Shown here one piece after another: positions 34,547 through 48,612 of a DNA stretch of 64,000 bases. The stretch is from a bacterium. Lineage in GTDB: Bacteria > UBA8248. The notes beneath the pieces are model-generated. The model saw only the letters and a program-made list of their open reading frames with translations. It searched no databases and was not told where the DNA came from. Made by a program: the position numbers and the translations under genes. The stretch is from the NCBI GenBank assembly GCA_965213625.1, contig CBDBZU010000004.1, positions 2,944,001 through 3,008,000 on the forward strand, written 5' to 3'. Position 1 is the stretch's first letter, and every line of letters starts with the position of its first letter.

Positions 34547-34744
34547 CGGGCTTTCCTCTCACTTGAGCGCTTTCAGGCCTTTCGACTCATATCAAGAATG
34601 TATCCACGACGAAACAACATGCTTCACGGAATGGTGCGCGTCAAGTATATTGATTTTCTAAATTCCGCTATCGCTTAGAACGAGGTTTCCTTCCGACGTT
34701 CGTTGGCCGGGAGCCCTGACATCGACAACCTGGAGCCCATATCC

Positions 34745-36654: not shown

Positions 36655-37415
36655 TTTACTTCTCCTAAAGCGGCCTTGCGGGCATGAATGCGAACCGACA
36701 CCACCGGTCGAAACGGAGCGTGGCCGGATATATCAATATCACAAAACCCGGCGCCCGCCAGCAATGATTCCCATTCGGTCTGCTCGCAAACCCCGCCGAG
36801 CGAGGCGTTCCACGCCTGGGGGTCCTGGGCGATCTCATCGGGCAAAGCACCCTCGCGTATCAGTTCACGGACGACGAGACGCCCGCCCGGCTTCAATATC
36901 CTGTGCGCCTCGGCGAGCGCCTTTTCCTTGTCCACCGTGAGGTTGAACGAGGCGTTGGCCAGCACGACGTCGGCGACACCATCAGCGAGGGGGACCTTCT
37001 CCATGTCCCCGGCCAGCAGATTCAGTTGCGCGCCACCAATGGCTCCCCTGAACGCCTCGCGCGCCCGATGAAGCATTTGAATCGCAAAATCCACGGCGTA
37101 CAGACTGGCGCCGACATCGAGTCTTTCGCTCAAGAGGCGCGCGTCCAATCCTGCGCCGCATCCCAATTCGACGGCCGTACGCACGCCTCTCAGATCGACC
37201 CCATCGAGCAGGTATCCGCAACCGCAATAAGAACCCGAAACCCGTTCGGGCAGACCGTCGATGAAGCGGGCGGGATAACCCGCACCCCGCGCCCTGTCCG
37301 TCCCGCCCTCCGGGAACGCATCCGCCTCGGCCAGATGGGCGTAGCGCTTTCTGACGAAGGATTTTACCTGCTCCTCCCACGCTTTCGGCTTCGCGCCATC
37401 TACGGTTACGGGCAT
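36651..37415 (-). CDS. SAM-dependent methyltransferase (ArsM-like)
   Basis: SYCGCG, ELGCGAGLD, NASFNL..DK and RILKPGG motifs. The start was reassigned to ATG 37415. Confidence 0.8.
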   Translation of the reverse strand: MPVTVDGAKPKAWEEQVKSFVRKRYAHLAEADAFPEGGTDRARGAGYPARFIDGLPERVSGSYCGCGYLLDGVDLRGVRTAVELGCGAGLDARLLSERLDVGASLYAVDFAIQMLHRAREAFRGAIGGAQLNLLAGDMEKVPLADGVADVVLANASFNLTVDKEKALAEAHRILKPGGRLVVRELIREGALPDEIAQDPQAWNASLGGVCEQTEWESLLAGAGFCDIDISGHAPFRPVVSVRIHARKAALGEVN

Positions 37416-37422
37416 GGTCGGC

Positions 37423-38175
37423 CTAATGCGGCATGTGGGCCGGGTTCCAGAACTCCCCGGTCCGCACCATTTTGGCGATTCGTTCGCCGTGAGGCATCCA
37501 GCCGTTCTCGTTTTTCTTCGCCTGCGTTTCGCAGTCGTACGCCACGCGCTTGGTCTCAACGCGCCACTCGCCATCGCCCAGATATTCCACGACCGAATAG
37601 GCGGGGCGGTAGTCGCCGTCCCAGTTCATTCCGACTGCGGCGGTGCAGACCAGGGTCTGTCCGTCCACTTCGCGGACGTAGGGGCCGTGCACGTGGCCGA
37701 AGGCCATGATCTCCGCATCCGTTCCCTTGATCTTCTCCTTCACCTCCTCGTCCGTGAACCTCAGGGGAATCGCGTCTTCGATGTCGTCCGGTGTAGCGTG
37801 GAAGATGAAGAAATCATGCCCCTTCTCGGGCGTGATCGTCATCGACCACATGAGGCCGTCGAGATAGTCGATCTGCTCGGCGGAGAGGCGCTCGCGCGTC
37901 TTCTTCACCATCTCGTAGAGCCATACATGGTGTTCGTTCTTGGGCGGGTCCGTCTCGTCTTTTCGCTTCGACACCCACCAGTCCAGGTTTCCGGCGAGGA
38001 CGTCCACGTCCTTGCGCCCCATGAAGCGCTCCACCACCTCGGTGGGCTCGGGGCCGAGCATCACCAGATCGCCGATGACGATCTCACGGTCCGCGTTTTC
38101 TTTGGCCACTGCTTCCTGCACGGCATCCAGAGGCGCAAGCTGCGCGTGGATGTCGGAATACAAAATAATTTTCAC
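37423..38175 (-). CDS. Metallophosphoesterase (calcineurin-like)
   Basis: SDIH, GDLV, GNLD, FH and GHVH motifs. Confidence 0.9.
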   Translation of the reverse strand: MKIILYSDIHAQLAPLDAVQEAVAKENADREIVIGDLVMLGPEPTEVVERFMGRKDVDVLAGNLDWWVSKRKDETDPPKNEHHVWLYEMVKKTRERLSAEQIDYLDGLMWSMTITPEKGHDFFIFHATPDDIEDAIPLRFTDEEVKEKIKGTDAEIMAFGHVHGPYVREVDGQTLVCTAAVGMNWDGDYRPAYSVVEYLGDGEWRVETKRVAYDCETQAKKNENGWMPHGERIAKMVRTGEFWNPAHMPH

Positions 38176-38198
38176 GTTGCTATTCCCTTTCCGTTATC

Positions 38199-38238
38199 AA
38201 AAGAACAGGGCCGCCGCACCCGAAGAGCGCGGCGGCCC
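38199..38238 (-). terminator. Hairpin/terminator after the ABC substrate-binding gene
   Basis: GGGCCGCCGC..GCGGCGGCCC stem with a TGTTCTTTT tail on the minus strand. Confidence 0.7.
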
Positions 38239-38259
38239 GTAATCATACTTGTTGAAAAT

Positions 38260-39273
38260 CTAAATTTTGCCTGCCTTGGCCAAGGCCGCTTTCGTCACGC
38301 TGGTGTCGACGATGTCCTCATAAGAGGGAACCTTGCCCTTGATCTTCCCGAGGCGCTTCATGTAGTCCGCCGTGAAGGCAACCGAGGCTTTGGGGATGCC
38401 GTTGTTCACACCCCAGATCTTCTCCGCCACGAAAATGTCATACGTCTTCGACATGATCTCGGGGTTTTTCTTGTAAACGGGGCGCACCCATTTGTTCGCC
38501 GATTTAAGATACCCCGCCTTGTCCTTGTAGATGGATCGGTTGGACTGCATCATCGCCATGGCGAAGCGCACGTAGGCATCCTTGTTCGAGTTGATCTTCG
38601 AAGACGGTGCGATGAACGCCCCGTAGAAGAAGTTCGGCATCGCCTTCCACAGGTCCATCAGCTTGTTGAAGTTGGGCTTTCTCTTCTTGACGACGAGAAC
38701 CTGCTCGACGTGAATCACCACGGCGTCGGCCTTGCCCTTGAGCAGGAACGGAACGCGCGCCGGCGGCGGGGTCTTGATGTATTTGACATCCTTGTCCGTC
38801 AGGCCTGCGGTCGACAGTACGGCGAGTGCGCCCAGGTGGCTGTATCCGCCGCGCCCCTCGATACCGATGGTCTTGCCCTTGAGGTCGGACGGCTTTTTCA
38901 CCTGGTCGTTCCCGGCCATCTGCGCTTCGTTCAGGTAAGCCATGGAGTGGAAGAACTTCATGCCGCTACCCTTGGTGATGCCCACCATCGCTATCGGGGC
39001 CGGCACCCAGGCGGCGTCCAGACCGCTCTTCTTGCTCGTTATCGCCCGGTGCGTGGCGACACCGCCCCGGAAGAATTTGATCTCCACGTCCAGGCCGTGT
39101 TTCTTGAAGATATCGTTGTCCAGCGCGTAAAACACCGGCAGGTGCACCATGACCGGCGGCCGCACGGGCATGCCGAGCACGATCTTGTCTGCGGCAACGG
39201 ACTGCGCCGGCGCGCTCCACATCGTTGCGGCGAGAACGAACGCCGCGACCAAAACCATCCACATCTTTTTCAT
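38260..39273 (-). CDS. NitT/TauT-type ABC substrate-binding protein
   Basis: Signal peptide MKKMWMVLV; FKKHGLDVE, DLKGKTIG and GKADA motifs. Confidence 0.88.
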   Translation of the reverse strand: MKKMWMVLVAAFVLAATMWSAPAQSVAADKIVLGMPVRPPVMVHLPVFYALDNDIFKKHGLDVEIKFFRGGVATHRAITSKKSGLDAAWVPAPIAMVGITKGSGMKFFHSMAYLNEAQMAGNDQVKKPSDLKGKTIGIEGRGGYSHLGALAVLSTAGLTDKDVKYIKTPPPARVPFLLKGKADAVVIHVEQVLVVKKRKPNFNKLMDLWKAMPNFFYGAFIAPSSKINSNKDAYVRFAMAMMQSNRSIYKDKAGYLKSANKWVRPVYKKNPEIMSKTYDIFVAEKIWGVNNGIPKASVAFTADYMKRLGKIKGKVPSYEDIVDTSVTKAALAKAGKI

Positions 39274-39328
39274 TTCAAACTCCTTAAAAAGAATAGAAAA
39301 TTCATGCCTCGACAAGACGCCCACTCAA

Positions 39329-40153
39329 TCAGGACTCTTGCCGAACCCTCCAGGAAGAGAACTTCGTTTCACAGATGTTCACCACTTTCGTTAAAGCTAT
39401 ACCGACTGCCATCAACAAGACAACAGGCGCCAGGCCTTTGTCCAGTTCCAAGTCCCCGATGTAGTCCTGACTCAACGCGCCGAGCCCCGAGATGCTCATC
39501 AGAAACTCCGCGACGACCATGCCCACCAGCGCGCGCCCGCACGCGAGCCCCAGCCCCGCGACGAGATAAGGGACTACGCTCGGGAAAATCAGGTCCCGCC
39601 ATCGCTGGCTCTCCGTGGAGCAGAACGAGCGCGTCACTTCCAAGAGCGAGAGGTCCACGTTCCGCACCCCGTGATAGACGTTCACGATGATAGGCATGAT
39701 GGCGAAGAATACGACGATGGTCGTCTTGCCCACGAAATCCACGCCCAGCACCATGGCTATCGGGAACGCCAGCGCGACCACCGGCGTGGCGTAGAGCGCG
39801 AACACGTAGGTGTCCACGGCGTATTCGAATATCTGGAAGCGCCCCATGAGAATCCCTAAAACGATGCCCATGGGAATCGCGATGAGCAGTCCCGCCACCA
39901 GGATTTGCGAACTCTCATAGGCGGCGGCCGTCATCTGGCCGCTGGCGATCAGGTCCCAGAACGCGACGGATATGGCGCTCGGGTAGCTGAAGGTGACCGG
40001 ATCGATGTTTCCGGTCAGCCCCATCAACTCCCACCCGCCGATGACGACCACAAGCGATATCAAGCGCACGTATACGGCGGGGTCCTTGATGCGCTCCCAG
40101 GATGCTTTTTCTGCCGTCGATACACCTGCTGCCGTCGGGGCGTCGGTAGCCAA
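39329..40153 (-). CDS. NitT/TauT ABC permease
   Basis: Six TM segments, an EAA-like loop and VVAEF..ISGLG. Confidence 0.9.
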   Translation of the reverse strand: MATDAPTAAGVSTAEKASWERIKDPAVYVRLISLVVVIGGWELMGLTGNIDPVTFSYPSAISVAFWDLIASGQMTAAAYESSQILVAGLLIAIPMGIVLGILMGRFQIFEYAVDTYVFALYATPVVALAFPIAMVLGVDFVGKTTIVVFFAIMPIIVNVYHGVRNVDLSLLEVTRSFCSTESQRWRDLIFPSVVPYLVAGLGLACGRALVGMVVAEFLMSISGLGALSQDYIGDLELDKGLAPVVLLMAVGIALTKVVNICETKFSSWRVRQES

Positions 40154-40167
40154 AGGTCTGGTGCCTC

Positions 40168-40977
40168 CTATTCAGCGATAAGTTCGGGTATGGGCTCGGG
40201 CTCTTCGTCGGGGTTGCGCAAGGCTTCCCAGAGGTAATGGCGCAGCGCCTGAAAGCGCTTGCCGCCACGGAGTTCTTCTAGGTTCCTGCCGCGGCCGAAG
40301 CCGGTTTCGAACTCAAAGCGTATTCTCCCGGGCCTGGGCGTCATCACCAGAACGCGGTCTCCGAGCAGGAGCGCCTCGTCGATGCTGTGGGTGATGAAAA
40401 TCATCGCCTTGGGCTCCGCTTCGTTGATGCGCAGCAATTCCTCCTGCAGGGTTTCGCGCGTGAGGGCATCGAGAGCGCCGAAGGGCTCATCCATCAGCAG
40501 GACGTCGGGCTGCGCGGCGAGCGCCCTCGCAAGGCCCGCTCTTTGCTGCATCCCGCCCGATAGCTGCGAGGGGTAGTTCGCCTCGAAACCGCCCAGACCC
40601 ACCAGCTCCGTGTAGTGGCTCACCAGGCTGTCGATTTCACTCTTATCCTTGCCCTGTATCCTGAGCGCGTAGCCGATATTCTGATCCAGGCGCTTCCAGG
40701 GGAAAAGCCCGAAATTCTGAAAAACCATGGCCATCTCGGGCCTCGGACCGTCCACCACCTCGCCCTTGAAGGACACCTCGCCCCTCTCGCAGAGAATGAG
40801 TCCGTTCACGATGCGAAGGAGCGTCGTCTTCCCGCACCCGCTGGGCCCCAGCACCGTCAGGATTTCCTGGGTCTTCACGTCGATGTCGATGTCATCGAGC
40901 ACATGGAGGGACCCGAACCATTTCCCGACGCCTTGAAGGCGCAGTGTCGGATTCGTGCCGTTGTCGGATGAAGACAT
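40168..40977 (-). CDS. NitT/TauT ABC ATP-binding protein
   Basis: GPSGCGKT, LSGGMQQR, MDEPFGALD and ITHS motifs. Confidence 0.95.
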   Translation of the reverse strand: MSSSDNGTNPTLRLQGVGKWFGSLHVLDDIDIDVKTQEILTVLGPSGCGKTTLLRIVNGLILCERGEVSFKGEVVDGPRPEMAMVFQNFGLFPWKRLDQNIGYALRIQGKDKSEIDSLVSHYTELVGLGGFEANYPSQLSGGMQQRAGLARALAAQPDVLLMDEPFGALDALTRETLQEELLRINEAEPKAMIFITHSIDEALLLGDRVLVMTPRPGRIRFEFETGFGRGRNLEELRGGKRFQALRHYLWEALRNPDEEPEPIPELIAE

Positions 40978-41191: not shown

Positions 41192-41584
41192 CTATTCCTC
41201 GCCGATGACGGCGACGGCCTGTATTTCCACCATCATTTCCGGCTTTGCGAAACCCGCCACCGTGATCAAGGCGCTGCCGGGATATCCATCCGGGAAATAC
41301 TGCTTTCTGAGATCGACGAACCGATCCCCATACTGGACGTTCAGAGTGAAGACGGTCATCGTCACGATGTCCTGAAGTTTTCCGCCCGCCCGCTCCAGGG
41401 TTCGCTCAATCTGGCGAAACGTGGCGTGCACCTGCGCGTCGAAATCTCCCGCCAGCACGTTTCCCCGCTCATCGCGCCACATCCCTACGCCGGCAAGCCA
41501 GATGTGCTCGCCTCCTTTCGTCTTCACCGCAGGCGAAAAGGAACGATCCTCCTGCCAGGTGCCCTTGAAATACTCGCGCGCCAT
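41192..41584 (-). CDS. RidA family protein
   Basis: FDAQ..TF, YPGSALI and MVEIQAVA motifs. The start MAREY overlaps the MFS stop. Confidence 0.85.
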   Translation of the reverse strand: MAREYFKGTWQEDRSFSPAVKTKGGEHIWLAGVGMWRDERGNVLAGDFDAQVHATFRQIERTLERAGGKLQDIVTMTVFTLNVQYGDRFVDLRKQYFPDGYPGSALITVAGFAKPEMMVEIQAVAVIGEE

Positions 41585-42810
41585 TATGTTGCCTCCCCGG
41601 GTTTTGATGTTTCCGTTTTTTTGCCTCTTAACTGCACCGATGCCGAAACGGCCAGCCAGCTCATGATCGCAAAACAAAAATAGCTCGCATCCAGATTCAC
41701 CTGCTCGGCGAGCCACCCGCCCAGCAATGGGGCGAGGAAACTCAAGCCGTGGCAGGTATAAATGAATCCGACGGATGAAGCGAGAATATCCTTTTCCGAG
41801 AAATCAGCCGCCGCGGTGAGGATAATCGGGCTCACGAACCCGACGACACCCGTCAATGCCGAAAGAATATAAAACCCCGTTTCCCACCCCATGAACGGCA
41901 GGGCGAAAACGAATACTCCCAGCAGCGTCAAGGGCCAGAACAAAGCGGCCCGCGCCCCCCAGCGGTTATACAGGACTCCCATCAATGGTTTGGCCAACAT
42001 GCCGAACCCGAAATGGAGCGATACGGCCACGCCGATTTGCGCCGTGTTCATCCCCAGGTTCGAGGTCGCCAGAAGGGGGAGAAAACCTATCATTCCCTTG
42101 GTGCACATGCCGCGCAAAGTGTAGGTCGCCGCCAGCCACACCGTGTTTTTGTTCTCGACGACCCGCCTGATGATGGAGAAGACTTTCAGGTCCGCCGTTT
42201 TTCCCGCTTCGCGAATGGAGCGATTTCTCCCTTCGCTGAACCGTGCGTTCACCAGAGGGAGGAGCGCTATGGCGGGGGCCGCGCATGCGCCGACCGCCGC
42301 GCGCCATCCGGCTACCGCCGCCAGCGCCGCCTGGGCCAGCGGGAGGATGCTGGTTCCCAGATTGCCGCCCAGGCTGTGCCACGAAATGGCGAATGCGCGG
42401 TCGCGCTCGAAGCGATTCGCCGTCAGCGCCGTTCCGCACGGGTGGTAAACGGAATTGCCCGCGCCCGCCAGAAACGCCAGGGCGCACATAGGCAAGAACC
42501 GGCTCACCCAAATCATCGCCATGAAAGAGGCGGCGGAGAGGCCCATGCCCATCAGCAGGATTCGTTTTCTGGCGCCCGTGCTGTCCGCCAGTATGGAGAG
42601 GGGGTATTGGAAGATCATCTGCCCCAGACTGAAAGTGCTGAGGAGGACTCCCACTTCGAAGGGAGAGAGGTCGAGATCCACGACGATGAGCGCGAGAACG
42701 GGAACGAGCATGTTGGAGAACCCGTCACTCAGCCCGTGGGTAAAACCGATGACGCTCAGATCGAAATAATCACCGAGCCTCCAAGCCGGTTTTTGCGCTT
42801 GTGTGGTCAC
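41584..42810 (-). CDS. MFS transporter (FSR-like)
   Basis: About 12 TM segments; YHP.G and HSLGGNLG motifs. The GTG start overlaps the upstream stop. Confidence 0.87.
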   Translation of the reverse strand: MTTQAQKPAWRLGDYFDLSVIGFTHGLSDGFSNMLVPVLALIVVDLDLSPFEVGVLLSTFSLGQMIFQYPLSILADSTGARKRILLMGMGLSAASFMAMIWVSRFLPMCALAFLAGAGNSVYHPCGTALTANRFERDRAFAISWHSLGGNLGTSILPLAQAALAAVAGWRAAVGACAAPAIALLPLVNARFSEGRNRSIREAGKTADLKVFSIIRRVVENKNTVWLAATYTLRGMCTKGMIGFLPLLATSNLGMNTAQIGVAVSLHFGFGMLAKPLMGVLYNRWGARAALFWPLTLLGVFVFALPFMGWETGFYILSALTGVVGFVSPIILTAAADFSEKDILASSVGFIYTCHGLSFLAPLLGGWLAEQVNLDASYFCFAIMSWLAVSASVQLRGKKTETSKPGEAT

Positions 42811-43865
42811 TACGATGCGGGAAGATCGCGCCAGGCGGGAACGATGCCTCCGCCGTCGGCTTCCATGACCGCGCGGCAAATCGCGTGGCCGACAGCCTTG
42901 ATGGCGGCTGCGCCTACGACGTCGAGCGCCGCCTCTCGCTCCCCGTGAGAGAGCGCGAACACCATGTCTCCATCCACCGTCGTATAGGAGGGGCGGACAG
43001 TCCGAATGAGTCCGTTCGTCGCCAATTGGGCGAGTTTGTGGGTTTCTGTTTTCGTCAGGCGGGCATTCGTCGCCACGGCGACCAGCGTCGTGTTCTGGGA
43101 AGTGTTGGAAAACCCCTCAAAAGGTCGTCCGTGGATTCTCAGGTGTTCTTCCGTATCCACGATCCCCTGCTCGGGGGGCATCGCCCTGGGTCCGGCAACC
43201 GGTTTTCCCGTCTCCGGGTCGTACACGCCGCCGAAGGCGTTCACCGCGGCAATCGCGCCAACGACACCACCCCCCGGCAGCGCAACGCTCGCCGTACCGA
43301 CGCCGCCCTTCATGGCTCGTTCCTGGCCGAACAGTTTCCCGATCGTGGCGCCCGCGCCTGCGCCCACGCTCCCCTGGGGGCCTTCGGCGTTCGAAGCCGC
43401 ATCGCATGCGGCGCGCCCCATCGCAGCGTTCGGACGGACTCTGCCGTCACCGAAATGCAGATCGAACAACACACCTGCTGCGACCGTGGGCACGTTGAAT
43501 AGCCCGGTTGGAAACCCCCTGCCCTGCTCCTCGAGAAAGGCCATGACACCGTCGGCAGAAGCCAGGCCGAACGCGCTGCCTCCCGTCAAGACGATCGCGT
43601 CCACGCCGCCGACCAGATGCTCGGCGCGCAGCGCATCCATGCCGCGCGTCGCCGTCGCCGTGCCTCGTAATTCGCACGCCCCGACGGTCCCTGGAGGGCA
43701 TAGCACCACGGAGACGCCCGTCCTGGCTTCTTCATCGTGCGCGTGGCCGAGGTAAAAGCCCGGCACGTCGGTTATGCAGCCTGTGAGGTCAGAGAGATTC
43801 AGAAGAGAGACTCCTCGTTTCCTCGGGCATCGATCGATCCGCCTAGTCCGCGACGGGCAATTCAC
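42810..43865 (-). CDS. DmpA/peptidase S58 (P1) family protein
   Basis: ITDVPGFYLGH, TGGSAFGL, GAGAGA, KGGVG, NTTL and DGDMVFALS motifs. The true start is probably near 43800. Confidence 0.88.
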   Translation of the reverse strand: MNCPSRTRRIDRCPRKRGVSLLNLSDLTGCITDVPGFYLGHAHDEEARTGVSVVLCPPGTVGACELRGTATATRGMDALRAEHLVGGVDAIVLTGGSAFGLASADGVMAFLEEQGRGFPTGLFNVPTVAAGVLFDLHFGDGRVRPNAAMGRAACDAASNAEGPQGSVGAGAGATIGKLFGQERAMKGGVGTASVALPGGGVVGAIAAVNAFGGVYDPETGKPVAGPRAMPPEQGIVDTEEHLRIHGRPFEGFSNTSQNTTLVAVATNARLTKTETHKLAQLATNGLIRTVRPSYTTVDGDMVFALSHGEREAALDVVGAAAIKAVGHAICRAVMEADGGGIVPAWRDLPAS

Positions 43866-44499
43866 CGGACGACGGGCCGGGCAGCTCGCCGGTTTCGAGG
43901 ATGCTGTCGATGACGTATTTGTATTGTTCCGCCGGCACCGCGCCGACCATGACCGCTTGGTCGTTCACGACGACGGAGGGGATGCCCGTTATCCCTAAAT
44001 TCGTGGCTTCCATGTATTCCTTGACGGCCTTTTCCTTCAAACCCCCGCTTTCGAGTGTGTCACGGTACCTGTCCATATCCAGACCGCTTTTCTCCGCCAC
44101 GTCGCTCACCACTTCGGGGTTCGATATGTTCCTGTTTTCCGTGAAGAAGGCGGCCAGAAGATTATCGTGGAATTTTTCCCACTCTTCGGGGCCCTGGAAC
44201 CTCGCCGCCAGCCCGGCTTCCGCTGAGGGCATCGAGCAGTTCGGGAATTCCTCCTCGCTCTCCCACAAGGTGAAATCGCCGGAATCTGGCTGTGAATCCG
44301 CGTTCGTCCAGTGGTTTTTCCGGTAATCGTTGAACACCGCCGTGGGGTCCGGCTCGGGCCTCAGCATGAATACCCTGTACTGGATTTCGACTTTATCTCC
44401 GTATTCTTCTTTAATCTTCTTCAGGCGCACGGCCGAGTTGAAGCACCAGGGTCACAAAAAATCGCTGTAAACCGTGAACCGTACAGGGGCGTTCTCCAT
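43843..44499 (-). CDS. DsbA/FrnE-like thiol oxidoreductase with in-frame UGA (probable selenocysteine, UPWC)
   Basis: AGGAG RBS, then MENAPVRFTVYSDFL-TGA(44452-44454)-PWCFNSAVRL in frame with the track ORF; C-terminal GITGIP..GAVP. Confidence 0.85.
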
Positions 44500-44555
44500 T
44501 TCTCTCTCCTTTGGCTCCGGGCGAATGACGCCGGCGCAGACTGATGAACGGCAAA

Positions 44556-45443
44556 CTATAGTCTCATGTGCCTCATATGCACCTTCACTTTCTCGCCGAT
44601 GCCCGTTTCCAGAAACTGGGCGGCATTTCCTTCGGGCACGAATATCTCCAGCCGAGTCCAGCTGTTGAACTGCGCGCCGAGATCACCCGTCTTCACCGCC
44701 TGATAGAATTCGCTCACTCCGTTAATCACGTGGCCGCCAATTTCGATGATCGGCAAATGCGCGACATCGTCTTCTCCATACTCGAAACGCCAGAAAGTCG
44801 TGGTGTCGATGTTCGTCACGAGGTTACCGTAATGATCGACGTAGATGACCTCGCCGGAGATGGTATCGGAGTCCTCGAATTCCACTGCCGGGAAATCGAA
44901 GCGCACCGGATCGGTGATGATGGATCCGAAATCCTCCGGTGGAGCTCCGTAGGAGAGATGCCCCGCGACGGGCGCGAAAATATCCCTGCCGTGGAAGGTG
45001 GAACTCACCTCGTCCAGGAAAAACGCATCTTCTTCGAGCTCTCTCGTCCACATATAGAGGGGGTCGTCATACACGCAGGAAAACATGCCGTTGTCCGGCC
45101 CCACGAAGTAATAGTTTTCCGTGGCGGCTATAACCCCCCTTCGGCTGCTTCCCACGCCGGGGTCCACGACCGCCAAATGAATCGTACCGCGCGGAAAGTA
45201 ATGCGCCGAGGACCCCAGAATCAACGACGCCGCCTTGACGTCGTAAGGCGCTACGGAGTGGGTGATGTCCACAAGCCGGGCCATCGGGTTGATAGCCAGG
45301 ACGACGCCCTTCATCACTCCCACATAGTGTTCATCGCTACCGAAATCCGTGAGGAGCGTGACGATCGGCTGCGCGCCGCTTTCCTCTTCGTAATCGGGTG
45401 CGCCCTCGTGAAAAGGATTTGGACGCGATTGATCGTCCGTCAT
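44556..45443 (-). CDS. SAM hydroxide adenosyltransferase (DUF62)
   Basis: TLLTDFG, AVVDPGVGSSR, GPDNG, STFHGRDIFAP and DHYGN motifs. The start overlaps the mtaB stop. Confidence 0.9.
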   Translation of the reverse strand: MTDDQSRPNPFHEGAPDYEEESGAQPIVTLLTDFGSDEHYVGVMKGVVLAINPMARLVDITHSVAPYDVKAASLILGSSAHYFPRGTIHLAVVDPGVGSSRRGVIAATENYYFVGPDNGMFSCVYDDPLYMWTRELEEDAFFLDEVSSTFHGRDIFAPVAGHLSYGAPPEDFGSIITDPVRFDFPAVEFEDSDTISGEVIYVDHYGNLVTNIDTTTFWRFEYGEDDVAHLPIIEIGGHVINGVSEFYQAVKTGDLGAQFNSWTRLEIFVPEGNAAQFLETGIGEKVKVHMRHMRL

Positions 45444-46831
45444 GGCGCTAACTCCCCCCATAAGGCATCCGACCTTGCGGCGATGCGGGAAAATCCATTC
45501 TTCGCGGGTAAAGATGCGAGCCGCACCGGAACCGTGCGCCCTATCCATTCATCAGGACCGGACGCCAGCACGCGGATGTAATTGTCCGACAAGCCGGTGA
45601 GAAGGCCGTCTTCAGTACGTTTGCTCTCGATCAACACGTCCGTTTCCTCCCCGGTTTGCGAGGAGACGAACGCCGCCCATTTCCTGCGGCCCAATTCCTG
45701 TAAGGCGCGCGCGCGGGCTTTCTGCTCGGCCTTTGGAATCTGCTCCGGCATTTCGATAGCCGCCGTCCCCTCGCGCGGCGAATACGGGAAAACGTGCAGA
45801 TACGCCAATGGCGATTCCCGCACCCATTCCATGGTCCGCTCGAACGCCTCCTTGCTCTCACCGGGAAAGCCGACGATGAAATCTCCGCCGAGGCAAGCCC
45901 CGTCTATTTTTCTTGCGATTTCATCGAACCGGCGCGCGCAGCGCTCGGCGGTATAGTTACGGTTCATCGCCGCGAGCGTTTCATCGTCCCCGCTCTGGAC
46001 GGGTATGTGGAAATGGCGGCAAATGTATCTTCCCCCATTCGACCTGGCAGGACTATACGCCTCGCCCGCCACGACGCGTATCAGTTCTCGCGTGAATTCC
46101 CCCGGCTCCACGGAGGAGAGCCTGAGGCGGAAATTTTTTTCAATCTCAAGCAATCGGCTCACCAGACGGCTCAGGGTGCTGCGCGGCTTGATGTCCCTGC
46201 CGTATGCGCCGAGGTGAATGCCGGTGAGCACCAGTTCCTCGTGCCCTCCAGTTAGCAGGGTACCGGCATGCGCAGCGCACGATTCCATTTCCAGCGAGCG
46301 GCTCGCCCCGCGCGCGATGGTCGTCGCGCAAAATGTGCAGGAAAAGTTGCACCCGTCCTGAACCTTGAGGTACGCCCGCGTCCTGCTGCCGAATTGAGGC
46401 AGGACGACGCTCTCGATATCGAGGCTTTCCTCGATGGGAGAAACCCGCATTTCGGGCTTCTCACCTCCAAGGAGCGGTATCGCCAGTTCATCGGGGAGCC
46501 TCAGTTTCTCCCTGTTTCCGAGCAGGAGGTCGACTTCCGGGATCAGCATATTCTCCGCGTTTGCCTGGGCGGAGCATCCCGCAATGACGACCTTGGCGTC
46601 CGGGCCGCCCGTCCGCCGCGCCTTGCGCGCCAGTCGCCTGCCCTCGCGGTCGGCTTCGGCCGTGACCGTGCAGCTGTTGACGACGTAGACGTCCGCTTCC
46701 TCTCCAAACGGAACCAACTCGAAACCAGCCCCCGCAGAGAGGTGCTTCATGGCTTCACCCTCGGCGTGGTTGAGCTTGCAGCCCAGATTGGCCAGGGCGA
46801 GGCGCAGGGGTTTCGCGCTTGCGCTCTTCAT
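45440..46831 (-). CDS. mtaB: tRNA t6A37 methylthiotransferase
   Basis: LGCKLN, NSCTVT, KVQDGCNFSCTFC, HVFPYSPREGT motifs and a TRAM-like C-terminus. Confidence 0.92.
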   Translation of the reverse strand: MKSASAKPLRLALANLGCKLNHAEGEAMKHLSAGAGFELVPFGEEADVYVVNSCTVTAEADREGRRLARKARRTGGPDAKVVIAGCSAQANAENMLIPEVDLLLGNREKLRLPDELAIPLLGGEKPEMRVSPIEESLDIESVVLPQFGSRTRAYLKVQDGCNFSCTFCATTIARGASRSLEMESCAAHAGTLLTGGHEELVLTGIHLGAYGRDIKPRSTLSRLVSRLLEIEKNFRLRLSSVEPGEFTRELIRVVAGEAYSPARSNGGRYICRHFHIPVQSGDDETLAAMNRNYTAERCARRFDEIARKIDGACLGGDFIVGFPGESKEAFERTMEWVRESPLAYLHVFPYSPREGTAAIEMPEQIPKAEQKARARALQELGRRKWAAFVSSQTGEETDVLIESKRTEDGLLTGLSDNYIRVLASGPDEWIGRTVPVRLASLPAKNGFSRIAARSDALWGELAP

Positions 46832-47151: not shown

Positions 47152-48018
47152 ATGCGTGGTTTTGACTTCGTGGCGCCGACGACCATATCGGCCACCCTAA
47201 AAGCGGCAAAAGGCAGAAGCACAAAGTACATCGCCGGAGGCACCAATTTCCTGCCCGATCTCAGGCACCAGCACGACGGCCCGGCGAAAGTCGTCATCGA
47301 CCTGATGAGAGTCTCTGCGCTACAGGGGATTTCCTCATCCAAGGGCCAGATTAAGCTGGGCGCCCTCGCGACCATGACGGACTTGTTGACCAACAAGACC
47401 ATTCTCAAGGAAGCGCCCATCCTGGCGGCGATGTCGGAGAAATTCGCAGGCCCGATCATCCGCAACCGCGCCACGGTGGCCGGCAACATCGTCGACGGCG
47501 GCCCCGCTGCCGACGCCGTTCCTCCCCTCCTCGCTCTGAAGGCGAAGGTGAGACTCGCCAGCGAAAAAGGAAGGCGGACGGTCGATCTCGACAAATTCCT
47601 CACCGGATACCGCCAGACGGCAATCCGGTCCAATGAATTGATCACCGCCGTAACCTTCCCCTCCCCCGGTAGAAACCACAAATGGGGCTATTACAAACTC
47701 GCTCGCAGGAACGCCATGGCCATCACCGTGGTGGGCGTGGCGGTCGTGTTGAAGGTGAGGCGCAAGAAGGTGGAAGAAGCGGGTATTTCGCTGGGCTCCG
47801 TGACGGCGGCTCCCATCCGCTGCTATGAGGCCGAGAAAATTCTCGAAGGCAACGTGGTGAATCTTGAACTGGCCCAAAAAGCCGCGGAAGCCTGCGCCGC
47901 CGTGGCGGCGCCAATCGACGACATTCGCGCATCGGCAGAATACCGCAAGCTGATGTGCGAAGTTCTGCCGCGTCGTCTCATCTGCCAGGCGCTGGATATT
48001 TCACAGGACAACGAATAG
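47152..48018 (+). CDS. Xanthine dehydrogenase family FAD subunit (CoxM/CutM-like)
   Basis: IAGGTN, IRNRATVAGN and DDIRASAEYR motifs. Confidence 0.92.
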   Translation: MRGFDFVAPTTISATLKAAKGRSTKYIAGGTNFLPDLRHQHDGPAKVVIDLMRVSALQGISSSKGQIKLGALATMTDLLTNKTILKEAPILAAMSEKFAGPIIRNRATVAGNIVDGGPAADAVPPLLALKAKVRLASEKGRRTVDLDKFLTGYRQTAIRSNELITAVTFPSPGRNHKWGYYKLARRNAMAITVVGVAVVLKVRRKKVEEAGISLGSVTAAPIRCYEAEKILEGNVVNLELAQKAAEACAAVAAPIDDIRASAEYRKLMCEVLPRRLICQALDISQDNE

Positions 48019-48063
48019 AAGACTTCATCGTCTCTTGAGAATTTCATTGGAGAACACTTGAAG

Positions 48064-48612
48064 ATGGCTACAGCAAGCAAATCTAAACGAACCAAAAAAT
48101 CGAGCGCTCCCGCATACGTGCCGCCCAAGAAACTGCCCATTTCATTCACGGTGAACGGCCAGGAAGTCAGCGCCGAAGCGCCCGCGCACACCACTTTGCT
48201 GTATCTGCTGCGCGACCTGGGCTTCACCGAGGTGAAAAACGGCTGCGAGGCGGGCGATTGCGGCGCGTGCACGATTCTTCTGGATGGTCTGGCGATGAAC
48301 GCTTGCTGCGCGCTCGGCGTCCAGGCCGAAGGGCGTGAGATCACCACCGTCAAGGGCATCGGCACGGTGGACAACCTCCATCCCATACAAGAAAAATTCA
48401 TCGAGCACGGCGCCATCCAGTGCGGTTTTTGCACGCCTGGAATGATAGTCGCCGCGAAGGAGTTGCTCGACAACACCCCGAATCCCAGCCGACACGAAAT
48501 CAAGGCCGGCATTGCGGGTAATCTATGTCGCTGCACAGGCTACGTGAAGATTATCGACGCTATCGAGGCCGCGGCTGAAGAACTTTCCTCGAAGAAAGGA
48601 AAAGGTAAATGA
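48064..48612 (+). CDS. [2Fe-2S] subunit (CoxS/CutS-like)
   Basis: GCEAGDCGACT, QCGFCTPG and GNLCRCTGY motifs. Confidence 0.95.
   Translation: MATASKSKRTKKSSAPAYVPPKKLPISFTVNGQEVSAEAPAHTTLLYLLRDLGFTEVKNGCEAGDCGACTILLDGLAMNACCALGVQAEGREITTVKGIGTVDNLHPIQEKFIEHGAIQCGFCTPGMIVAAKELLDNTPNPSRHEIKAGIAGNLCRCTGYVKIIDAIEAAAEELSSKKGKGK

Follow-up and report, generated by a model that had tools for sequence, protein, structure and literature searches.

The 64,000-nucleotide stretch of DNA analyzed here (the window) comes from a bacterium of the GTDB lineage UBA8248 (NCBI GenBank assembly GCA_965213625.1, contig CBDBZU010000004.1, positions 2,944,001 to 3,008,000 of the forward strand) and carries, on its minus strand, a reading frame with a single in-frame TGA. 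Very probably this frame is a genuine gene for a 218-residue cytoplasmic DsbA-like thiol/selenol-disulfide oxidoreductase, closest to FrnE, in which selenocysteine (Sec, U) is predicted as the nucleophilic first residue of the active site. The observations that carry this reading are the structure of the gene, the conservation of the TGA, the pairing of Sec forms with Cys forms, the Sec machinery of the genome, the fold of the protein, and a constraint on a downstream hairpin that acts at the level of RNA. Selenium would be inserted at the UGA, as far as can be judged from the sequence. The features of the gene, including the candidate selenocysteine insertion sequence (SECIS), are listed from 5′ to 3′ of the minus strand.

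44506..44510, minus strand: Shine-Dalgarno-like AGGAG, read from the sequence, with a 6-nt spacer to the ATG
43843..44499, minus strand: complete coding sequence of the predicted DsbA/FrnE-like selenoprotein, 218 codons from ATG (44499-44497) to TAG (43845-43843), with a single in-frame TGA
44452..44454, minus strand: TGA codon 16, predicted selenocysteine, which opens the redox motif U-P-W-C
44443..44445, minus strand: TGC codon 19, the putative resolving Cys of UxxC (C19), invariant in alignment A3 and paired with the second Cys of the FrnE CPWC motif
44416..44443, minus strand: SECIS-like hairpin, +11 to +38 relative to the U of UGA (position 0), recognized from folds, nearly frozen synonymous sites and the position of the loop
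44431-44427, minus strand: apical loop CGUGC (+23..+27), closed by a GGC/GCC stem
43978..43983, minus strand: codons of I173-P174, predicted to form the cis-proline loop of the thioredoxin fold, adjacent to the active site; both residues are invariant in A3 and precede strand 175-178 in the structural model

Reading frame and conservation of the TGA

Read on the minus strand, the frame runs from MENAPVRFTVYSDFL through the TGA (44454-44452) to PWCFNSAVRLKK... and ends at the TAG, which places the TGA in the context SDFL-U-PWC. The only ORF (open reading frame) that translation table 11 yields at this locus starts at GTG 44430 and encodes 195 amino acids without a CxxC redox motif. The initial annotation had noted this absence and had read a ribosome-binding site, an ATG, the TGA and PWC in frame upstream of the ORF, and both points were confirmed from the sequence. 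The position of the start Met is retained in most of the orthologues among the 32 loci read. A promoter scan around the gene returned no promoter-like site, and a terminator scan of the same region returned a single terminator-like site, on the opposite strand within the gene, a number within chance.

The expectation that such a gene would be misannotated as truncated was borne out by the protein collection searched. Among its 51 matches, 44 (P0002-P0045) are 152-197 amino acids long, reach at most 89% query coverage and start 3′ of the TGA; where they are named, the name is "DsbA family protein." The other seven are more distant, are 203-219 amino acids long, and carry CPWC in six cases and CPYY in one. 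No close relative spanning the TGA position was present among the 51 matches.

A six-frame search was made in 41 genomes (the source and 40 relatives) and gave matches in 36 of them. Every one of the 33 matches at 45 to 100% identity, distributed over 31 genomes, has a TGA, and in 32/32 loci read (a second copy in genome G004 was left out) it is the codon immediately before PWC. The context is SDFL-U-PWC in 27 loci, at the genus, family and order levels, and HDYC-U-PWC in five class-level loci. Removal of duplicates left 40 unique Sec-form coding sequences of full length, drawn from independent assemblies, and these keep the TGA at the same codon down to 45% identity, with frames that are otherwise intact; the orthologues are closely related, however, so that these conservation counts are not independent, which tempers their weight in favor of the reading. 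The clade is fixed for Sec across an entire class-level lineage of metagenome-assembled genomes (MAGs) labeled Nitrospinota, Nitrospinaceae or Tectomicrobia. As a side observation, the class-level Sec forms (L051-L055 and L094) read HDY-C-U-P-W-C, with a Cys right before the Sec, which gives three redox-active residues in five positions.

Forms with Cys occupy the same codon in other lineages. Of the 32 loci found in genome contigs, 23 have TGA (their titles read Nitrospinota, Nitrospinaceae or "bacterium"), and nine, from Myxococcota, a delta proteobacterium, Acidimicrobiia, Pseudomonadota, Sphingomonadales and Alphaproteobacteria, have TGT or TGC. Among metagenome loci, TGA was found in 7 and TGT or TGC in 73, counts that do not reflect natural frequencies, since Cys is spelled out in one of the two search patterns and the reading was limited to the 80 best matches out of 369. 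At the protein level, the full-length Cys proteins P0046-P0050, which are 31 to 35% identical, align their SDFLCPWC onto SDFL-U-PWC. The UGA thus stands exactly where the initial annotation had put it, at the first Cys of the family's DxxCPWC motif, and the alignment of Cys- and UGA-bearing homologues that it had proposed places both at one codon. On the sequence comparison, the TGA keeps its position far more consistently than chance would allow.

Upstream of the TGA, 11 codons keep their residues while the codons themselves vary (Pro 4, Val 4, Leu 4, Arg 3), and therefore this stretch is translated in frame with the downstream part. Conservation of the TGA, Cys homologues and upstream coding together make up the classical Sec/Cys-pair criterion, as judged from these sequences, and so rule out an error in sequencing, a nonsense mutation of recent date and a separate start downstream.

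The last of these alternatives treats the TGA as a true stop. The product would then be the 195-residue protein from GTG 44430, without a redox motif, and the upstream 15 codons would be a leader peptide or non-coding. Such an arrangement matches the output of the gene caller and the 44 of 51 relatives that start past the TGA, and it agrees with a hairpin that is no more stable than shuffled sequences (see below). It is nevertheless very unlikely: the 15 upstream codons and U-PWC are conserved as protein with synonymous codon changes, they align residue by residue with full-length Cys homologues and with FrnE over the first strand and CPWC, and the product from GTG 44430 would, according to the structural model, be without strand 1 and part of helix 1.

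The TGA could also be a recent nonsense mutation, the gene then being a pseudogene, or an assembly or sequencing error at a former TGC or TGT. One base separates TGA from either Cys codon, and many of the compared genomes are metagenome-assembled, but the same TGA recurs in the 40 unique coding sequences described above. The site was also checked in assembled contigs, which cannot show rare variants. A contig from run X1 is identical over the whole stretch but may be the source and is therefore not independent; a contig from another study spans the stretch and shows 68 differences from it, and 12 differences are counted in a third contig, which covers 44185-44500. Among the differences listed for the contigs of these two other studies (59 further ones are unlisted), none falls at 44452-44454, in agreement with the TGA, which the initial annotation had wanted confirmed in the reads. 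Mutation or error is extremely improbable as an explanation and close to refuted.

Selenocysteine machinery and the SECIS-like hairpin

The presence of the gene had been taken to imply Sec machinery in the genome (4.15 Mb in 4 contigs), and a profile search of that genome recovered all of the components sought above their curated cutoffs. The selA gene (564.4 bits) adjoins selB (388.1 bits), selD scores 333.5 bits and has an in-frame TGA of its own, and the tRNA for Sec scores 75.9 bits and is called by ARAGORN as tRNA-SeC with anticodon tca (UCA). In five of five more distant relatives with the TGA form, selA likewise exceeds its cutoff. The TGA of selD (locus L011, G000:C4:1518852-1519814, plus strand) lies in KAGG-U-GSK and is followed by a hairpin of -21.0 kcal/mol. 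In the proposed mechanism, UGA codon 16 would be recoded by SelB carrying Sec-tRNA(Sec), and SelB would be recruited by a small hairpin within the coding sequence, whose GU-containing apical loop lies ~24 nt past the UGA. Binding of SelB to this hairpin is predicted from its sequence and position.

The hairpin CUUCA-ACUC-GGC-CGUGC-GCC-UGAAG, proposed in the initial annotation, is present and has the lowest local folding energy, -6.8 kcal/mol, in a 39-nt segment. Its apical part is supported comparatively. The three pairs of GGC/GCC around CGUGC, with one G-U wobble, all form in 28/28 distinct rows of the SDFL type, and in 6/6 rows of the HDYC type or resembling L050, a stem GCC/GGC (ACC/GGU in L055) encloses a loop GUKC. 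The register is shifted by one base between the clades, within columns 24-42 of alignment A2 (44437-44419), through coordinated changes: TCG->TCC and CGC->CGG are synonymous, and AAG->GAA turns a Lys into a Glu. G+24 and U+25 are invariant among the 40 unique Sec forms. The synonymous sites of this region are also nearly frozen: codons +6..+10, all of them 4- or 6-fold degenerate, have heterozygosities of 0.26, 0, 0.18, 0.30 and 0.05, against a median of 0.515 for the 72 other 4- or 6-fold degenerate codons of the same genes (one-sided Mann-Whitney p = 0.001), and the corresponding values in the SDFL group alone are 0.06, 0, 0.06, 0.13 and 0.

Several observations pull the other way and have to be set against the Sec reading. 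A 66-nt fold reaches -9.9 kcal/mol (z = +0.93), a value equaled or bettered by 164 of 200 shuffled sequences; therefore, energy alone cannot support a SECIS. Local hairpin energies across the orthologues range from -4 to -10 kcal/mol, and RNAalifold applied to 35 orthologues gave a different, poor consensus at -2.98 kcal/mol, which was set aside; it is explained by the one-base offset between the pairing registers of the clades. The structure typical of the genus pairs in 85.3% of cells, with a covariation of 0.086 compared with a shuffled mean of 0.087, and the initially annotated hairpin pairs in 89.7% of cells with a covariation score below the shuffled mean. For the class-type structure, 63% of cells pair and two compensatory changes are present, to C-G in L050 and to A-U in L055; compensatory changes are limited to these two, both within six class-level sequences. 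Away from the hairpin, the sole RNA signal is one 167-nt metatranscriptome contig (run X22) over 44117-44280, which could be DNA carry-over.

The position of the apical loop was assessed with a rule that calls for a minimum-energy hairpin with a 3- to 9-nt apical loop within +19..+33 and a GU in that loop. The predicted DsbA-like selenoprotein gene passes it, as do 16 of 19 candidate selenoprotein genes of the genome picked by motif. The background rate is 7.0% among 1500 in-frame coding positions drawn at random and 6.3% among 1000 genuine TGA stops. The rule was framed after inspection of those 19 candidates and is thus post hoc, which counts as a further reservation. Across homologues, 25/40 Sec-form orthologues pass but only 7/72 Cys forms; the 15 Sec forms that fail, a point against the Sec reading, do so because other folds tie or win.

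Weighing both sides, we take the region to contain a small SECIS-like hairpin of marginal stability that is under selection at the RNA level. The hairpin of the initial annotation therefore stands in part: it is there, and its apical GGC-CGUGC-GCC is supported, but it is thermodynamically weak and its particular lower stem, one of two near-equivalent alternatives, is unsupported. Pair counts for the three candidate structures were rejected as proof of a SECIS, since covariation does not exceed that of the shuffles in either of the two genus-type structures. A comparison of hairpin energies between Sec and Cys forms (-6.5 and -11.5 kcal/mol) was dropped as confounded by G+C content (0.50 and 0.66).

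Read-through with another residue at the UGA (Trp, Cys or Gly), by near-cognate decoding or under a reassigned code, would likewise keep the frame open. TGA, however, is the commonest stop among the 3035 open frames of at least 300 codons (TGA 1428, TAG 883, TAA 724), and the genetic code is therefore not reassigned. The genome has a complete Sec system, the site is that of the family's catalytic Cys, where Trp or Gly would abolish activity, and the constraint on downstream synonymous sites is of the kind expected of a SECIS. Insertion of a residue other than Sec is accordingly highly improbable.

Protein family, fold and published relatives

With U written as C, the read-through protein (P0001) matches the Pfam family DSBA (PF01323) over residues 10-197, corresponding to profile positions 4-190 of 191, with an E value of 2.4e-23 and 83.4 bits against a cutoff of 25.6. 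None of the NCBIfam models reaches its cutoff, which is a point against the selenoprotein reading; the highest score, 47.9 bits, is for NF041057 (cutoff 190), a model for the Rcas_1661 family thioredoxin-like (seleno)lipoprotein, so that the predicted selenoprotein falls below the threshold of that family. Because the public relatives are truncated and no NCBIfam model is reached, redox inventories of this selenoprotein-rich lineage would miss an active enzyme. The practical meaning lies in annotation: in the collections searched, the close relatives are deposited without their catalytic motif.

The AlphaFold model (predicted local distance difference test score, pLDDT, 87.4; predicted template modeling score, pTM, 0.82) has a strand at 6-12, U16 directly before a helix at 17-36, a strand at 37-43 and a helical insertion at 58-167. 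These are followed by I173-P174, strands at 175-178 and 182-185, and a helix at 190-203, and residues 211-218 are disordered. The model thus shows a thioredoxin fold interrupted by a helical domain; the CxxC-type motif is found where helix 1 begins, and a conserved proline loop precedes strand 3. In the proposed reaction, U16, at the N terminus of helix 1 of this fold, would attack a substrate disulfide, and C19 would resolve the mixed selenylsulfide.

The best Foldseek matches of the model are 3kzq, FrnE, YjbH, 2in3, SCO1869, kappa-class glutathione S-transferases and the cytosolic reductase DsbM. At the level of sequence profiles, alignment A3, built from 12 orthologues, matches FrnE of Deinococcus radiodurans (5cp1/5cnw) with an E value of 4e-14, followed by the YjbH-like GK0824 and SCO1869. 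Among relatives of solved structure, FrnE thus gives the best profile match: its CPWC pairs with UPWC and the structures superimpose with TM scores of 0.70-0.74, at ~20% identity. FrnE has Cys where the predicted selenoprotein has Sec, and is 260 amino acids long compared with 218 residues. FrnE carries a further Cys pair in its C-terminal tail (the title of an entry names a C239S mutant). The predicted selenoprotein has no Cys after residue 88 and its C-terminal tail ETGELPGPSSGELPVAD is Cys-free, so that the tail pair of FrnE has no counterpart in it. Closer in length are the Cys-form homologues (SDYL-CPWC-YNAAVRL), which are of the same length, share the N-terminal strand and the motif, are 34 to 39% identical, and have a Cys codon in place of the TGA. 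They come from soil, freshwater and marine metagenomes and from MAGs of Myxococcota, Acidimicrobiia and Pseudomonadota.

The N terminus reads MENAPVRF, and strand 1 starts at residue 6, which therefore leaves no room for a signal peptide. In the model this points to a cytoplasmic location and, from there, to a probable role as a reductase or isomerase and not as a DsbB-coupled oxidase. FrnE is likewise not known to have an obvious export signal. Periplasmic DsbA of Escherichia coli and other Proteobacteria (1bed, 2ijy) shares the thioredoxin fold with a helical insertion and the CxxC-type motif at helix 1, but matches the profile of the selenoprotein only weakly (E about 1e-4), and its motif is CPHC, where the selenoprotein has UPWC. 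Given this weak match, the missing signal peptide and the different motif, a DsbB-linked oxidase role would not be expected.

Selenoproteins of this type were already known, as the initial annotation had stated. In the report by Zhang et al. in 2005 on the Sargasso Sea, a "DsbA-like protein" (COG2761, UxxC) is described as a new selenoprotein family with nine sequences and widespread Cys homologues (PMC1088965). The family was detected in complete genomes in 2006 (PMC1794560), and a 2026 review includes "DsbA-like protein form 1, PF01323, UxxC" (PMC13188914). As far as these descriptions go, form 1 has the same Pfam family, Sec at the first position of UxxC and widespread Cys homologues, and the published DsbA-like selenoproteins have a small hairpin with a G in its apical loop downstream of the UGA, comparable to the candidate hairpin described here. 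By its U16-P-W-C19 motif in a PF01323 protein, the predicted selenoprotein belongs to DsbA-like form 1 as judged from sequence. For placement in COG2761, the nearest proxy is FrnE as its best relative in the PDB. It differs from the published form in that the clade described here is Sec-fixed class-wide and always followed by a gene for an S58 peptidase. No new principle is added, since DsbA-like proteins with Sec have been in the literature from 2005 on; the residual novelty is the conserved pairing with the S58 peptidase and the minimal, register-shifting SECIS.

The S58 peptidase neighbor and other candidate selenoprotein genes

The genes around the predicted selenoprotein gene, listed in the same 5′-to-3′ direction, are all on the minus strand.

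45440-46831, minus strand: MiaB-like radical S-adenosylmethionine (SAM) enzyme
44556-45548, minus strand: SAM hydroxide adenosyltransferase
42810-43865, minus strand: peptidase S58 (DmpA-like), directly downstream of the predicted selenoprotein gene; Pfam PF03576, E 9.1e-40
41584-42879, minus strand: major facilitator superfamily (MFS) transporter
40168-40977, minus strand: ATP-binding cassette (ABC) ATPase

The S58 peptidase gene lies directly 3′ of the Sec form in 24/24 loci, including three class-level relatives at 45 to 48% identity, and also in nine further Sec-form loci, whereas it is next to none of the 82 Cys-form loci; two other loci end too early. The adenosyltransferase is kept in only 20 of the 24 loci, and the peptidase is the sole neighbor kept beside the Sec form out to the class-level relatives. 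This pairing may reflect shared ancestry or an operon, as far as gene order can indicate, and the peptidase is the only lead to the substrate. A stronger proposal is that the selenoprotein and the S58 peptidase form a lineage-wide two-gene module, more than a Cys-to-Sec swap, decoded via an unusually minimal SECIS (a 3-bp apical stem, a loop of the C-GUGC-G type and a register shifted between clades). We regard this as unlikely; if it were true, the peptidase or its substrates might depend on the selenoprotein for control of their maturation or redox state. Elsewhere in the window, the ORFs at 37414-39690 (plus strand, 758 amino acids) and 47823-48536 (minus strand, 237 amino acids) have no Pfam match at E <=1e-5.

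The genome looks selenoprotein-rich from its sequence. MAGs labeled Nitrospinota or Nitrospinaceae (GTDB UBA8248) are given 48-54 selenoprotein genes and placed among the ten richest bacteria in the 2026 report on BSepDB (PMC13326102), which was also the only paper that a full-text search joining "Nitrospinota" with "selenocysteine" returned. A genome-wide scan for in-frame TGA codons produced 136 candidates and is neither complete nor clean; it missed the predicted DsbA-like selenoprotein gene itself, because its test for upstream coding spans non-coding DNA when the Sec is near the N terminus. The 19 candidates to which the loop rule was applied were picked from this crude scan of G000:C4 by recurring redox motifs: six CxxU..HN, four D-UGSC, six U-P/G-x-C (among them SVTW-U-PLCY), two GFULLTQ and one AhpD-like gene with GCYG-U-TMNH. 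Of the 117 scan candidates outside these picks, 12 pass the loop rule, which is near background. One motif-picked candidate, on the minus strand at G000:C4 position 2940587, lies ~3.4 kb ahead of the start of the window, and a CxxU gene at C4:2410160 is also among the scan candidates. Within the window, a TGA at 34561 (G000:C4:2978561, minus strand) in KALK-U-EESP has only 10 open codons upstream and fails the loop rule; it is likely to be a false positive.

Other DsbA-like genes with an in-frame TGA were also observed. Two further ones lie outside the window, at G000:C4:2793126-2793680 and G000:C4:3655064-3655540, both on the minus strand, and one of these reads EYH-U-PWA, without a resolving Cys. 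The other has its TGA in YCVH-U-AWC, followed by a hairpin with an 8-bp stem and the loop GUGC at exactly +24..+27, at -18.6 kcal/mol.

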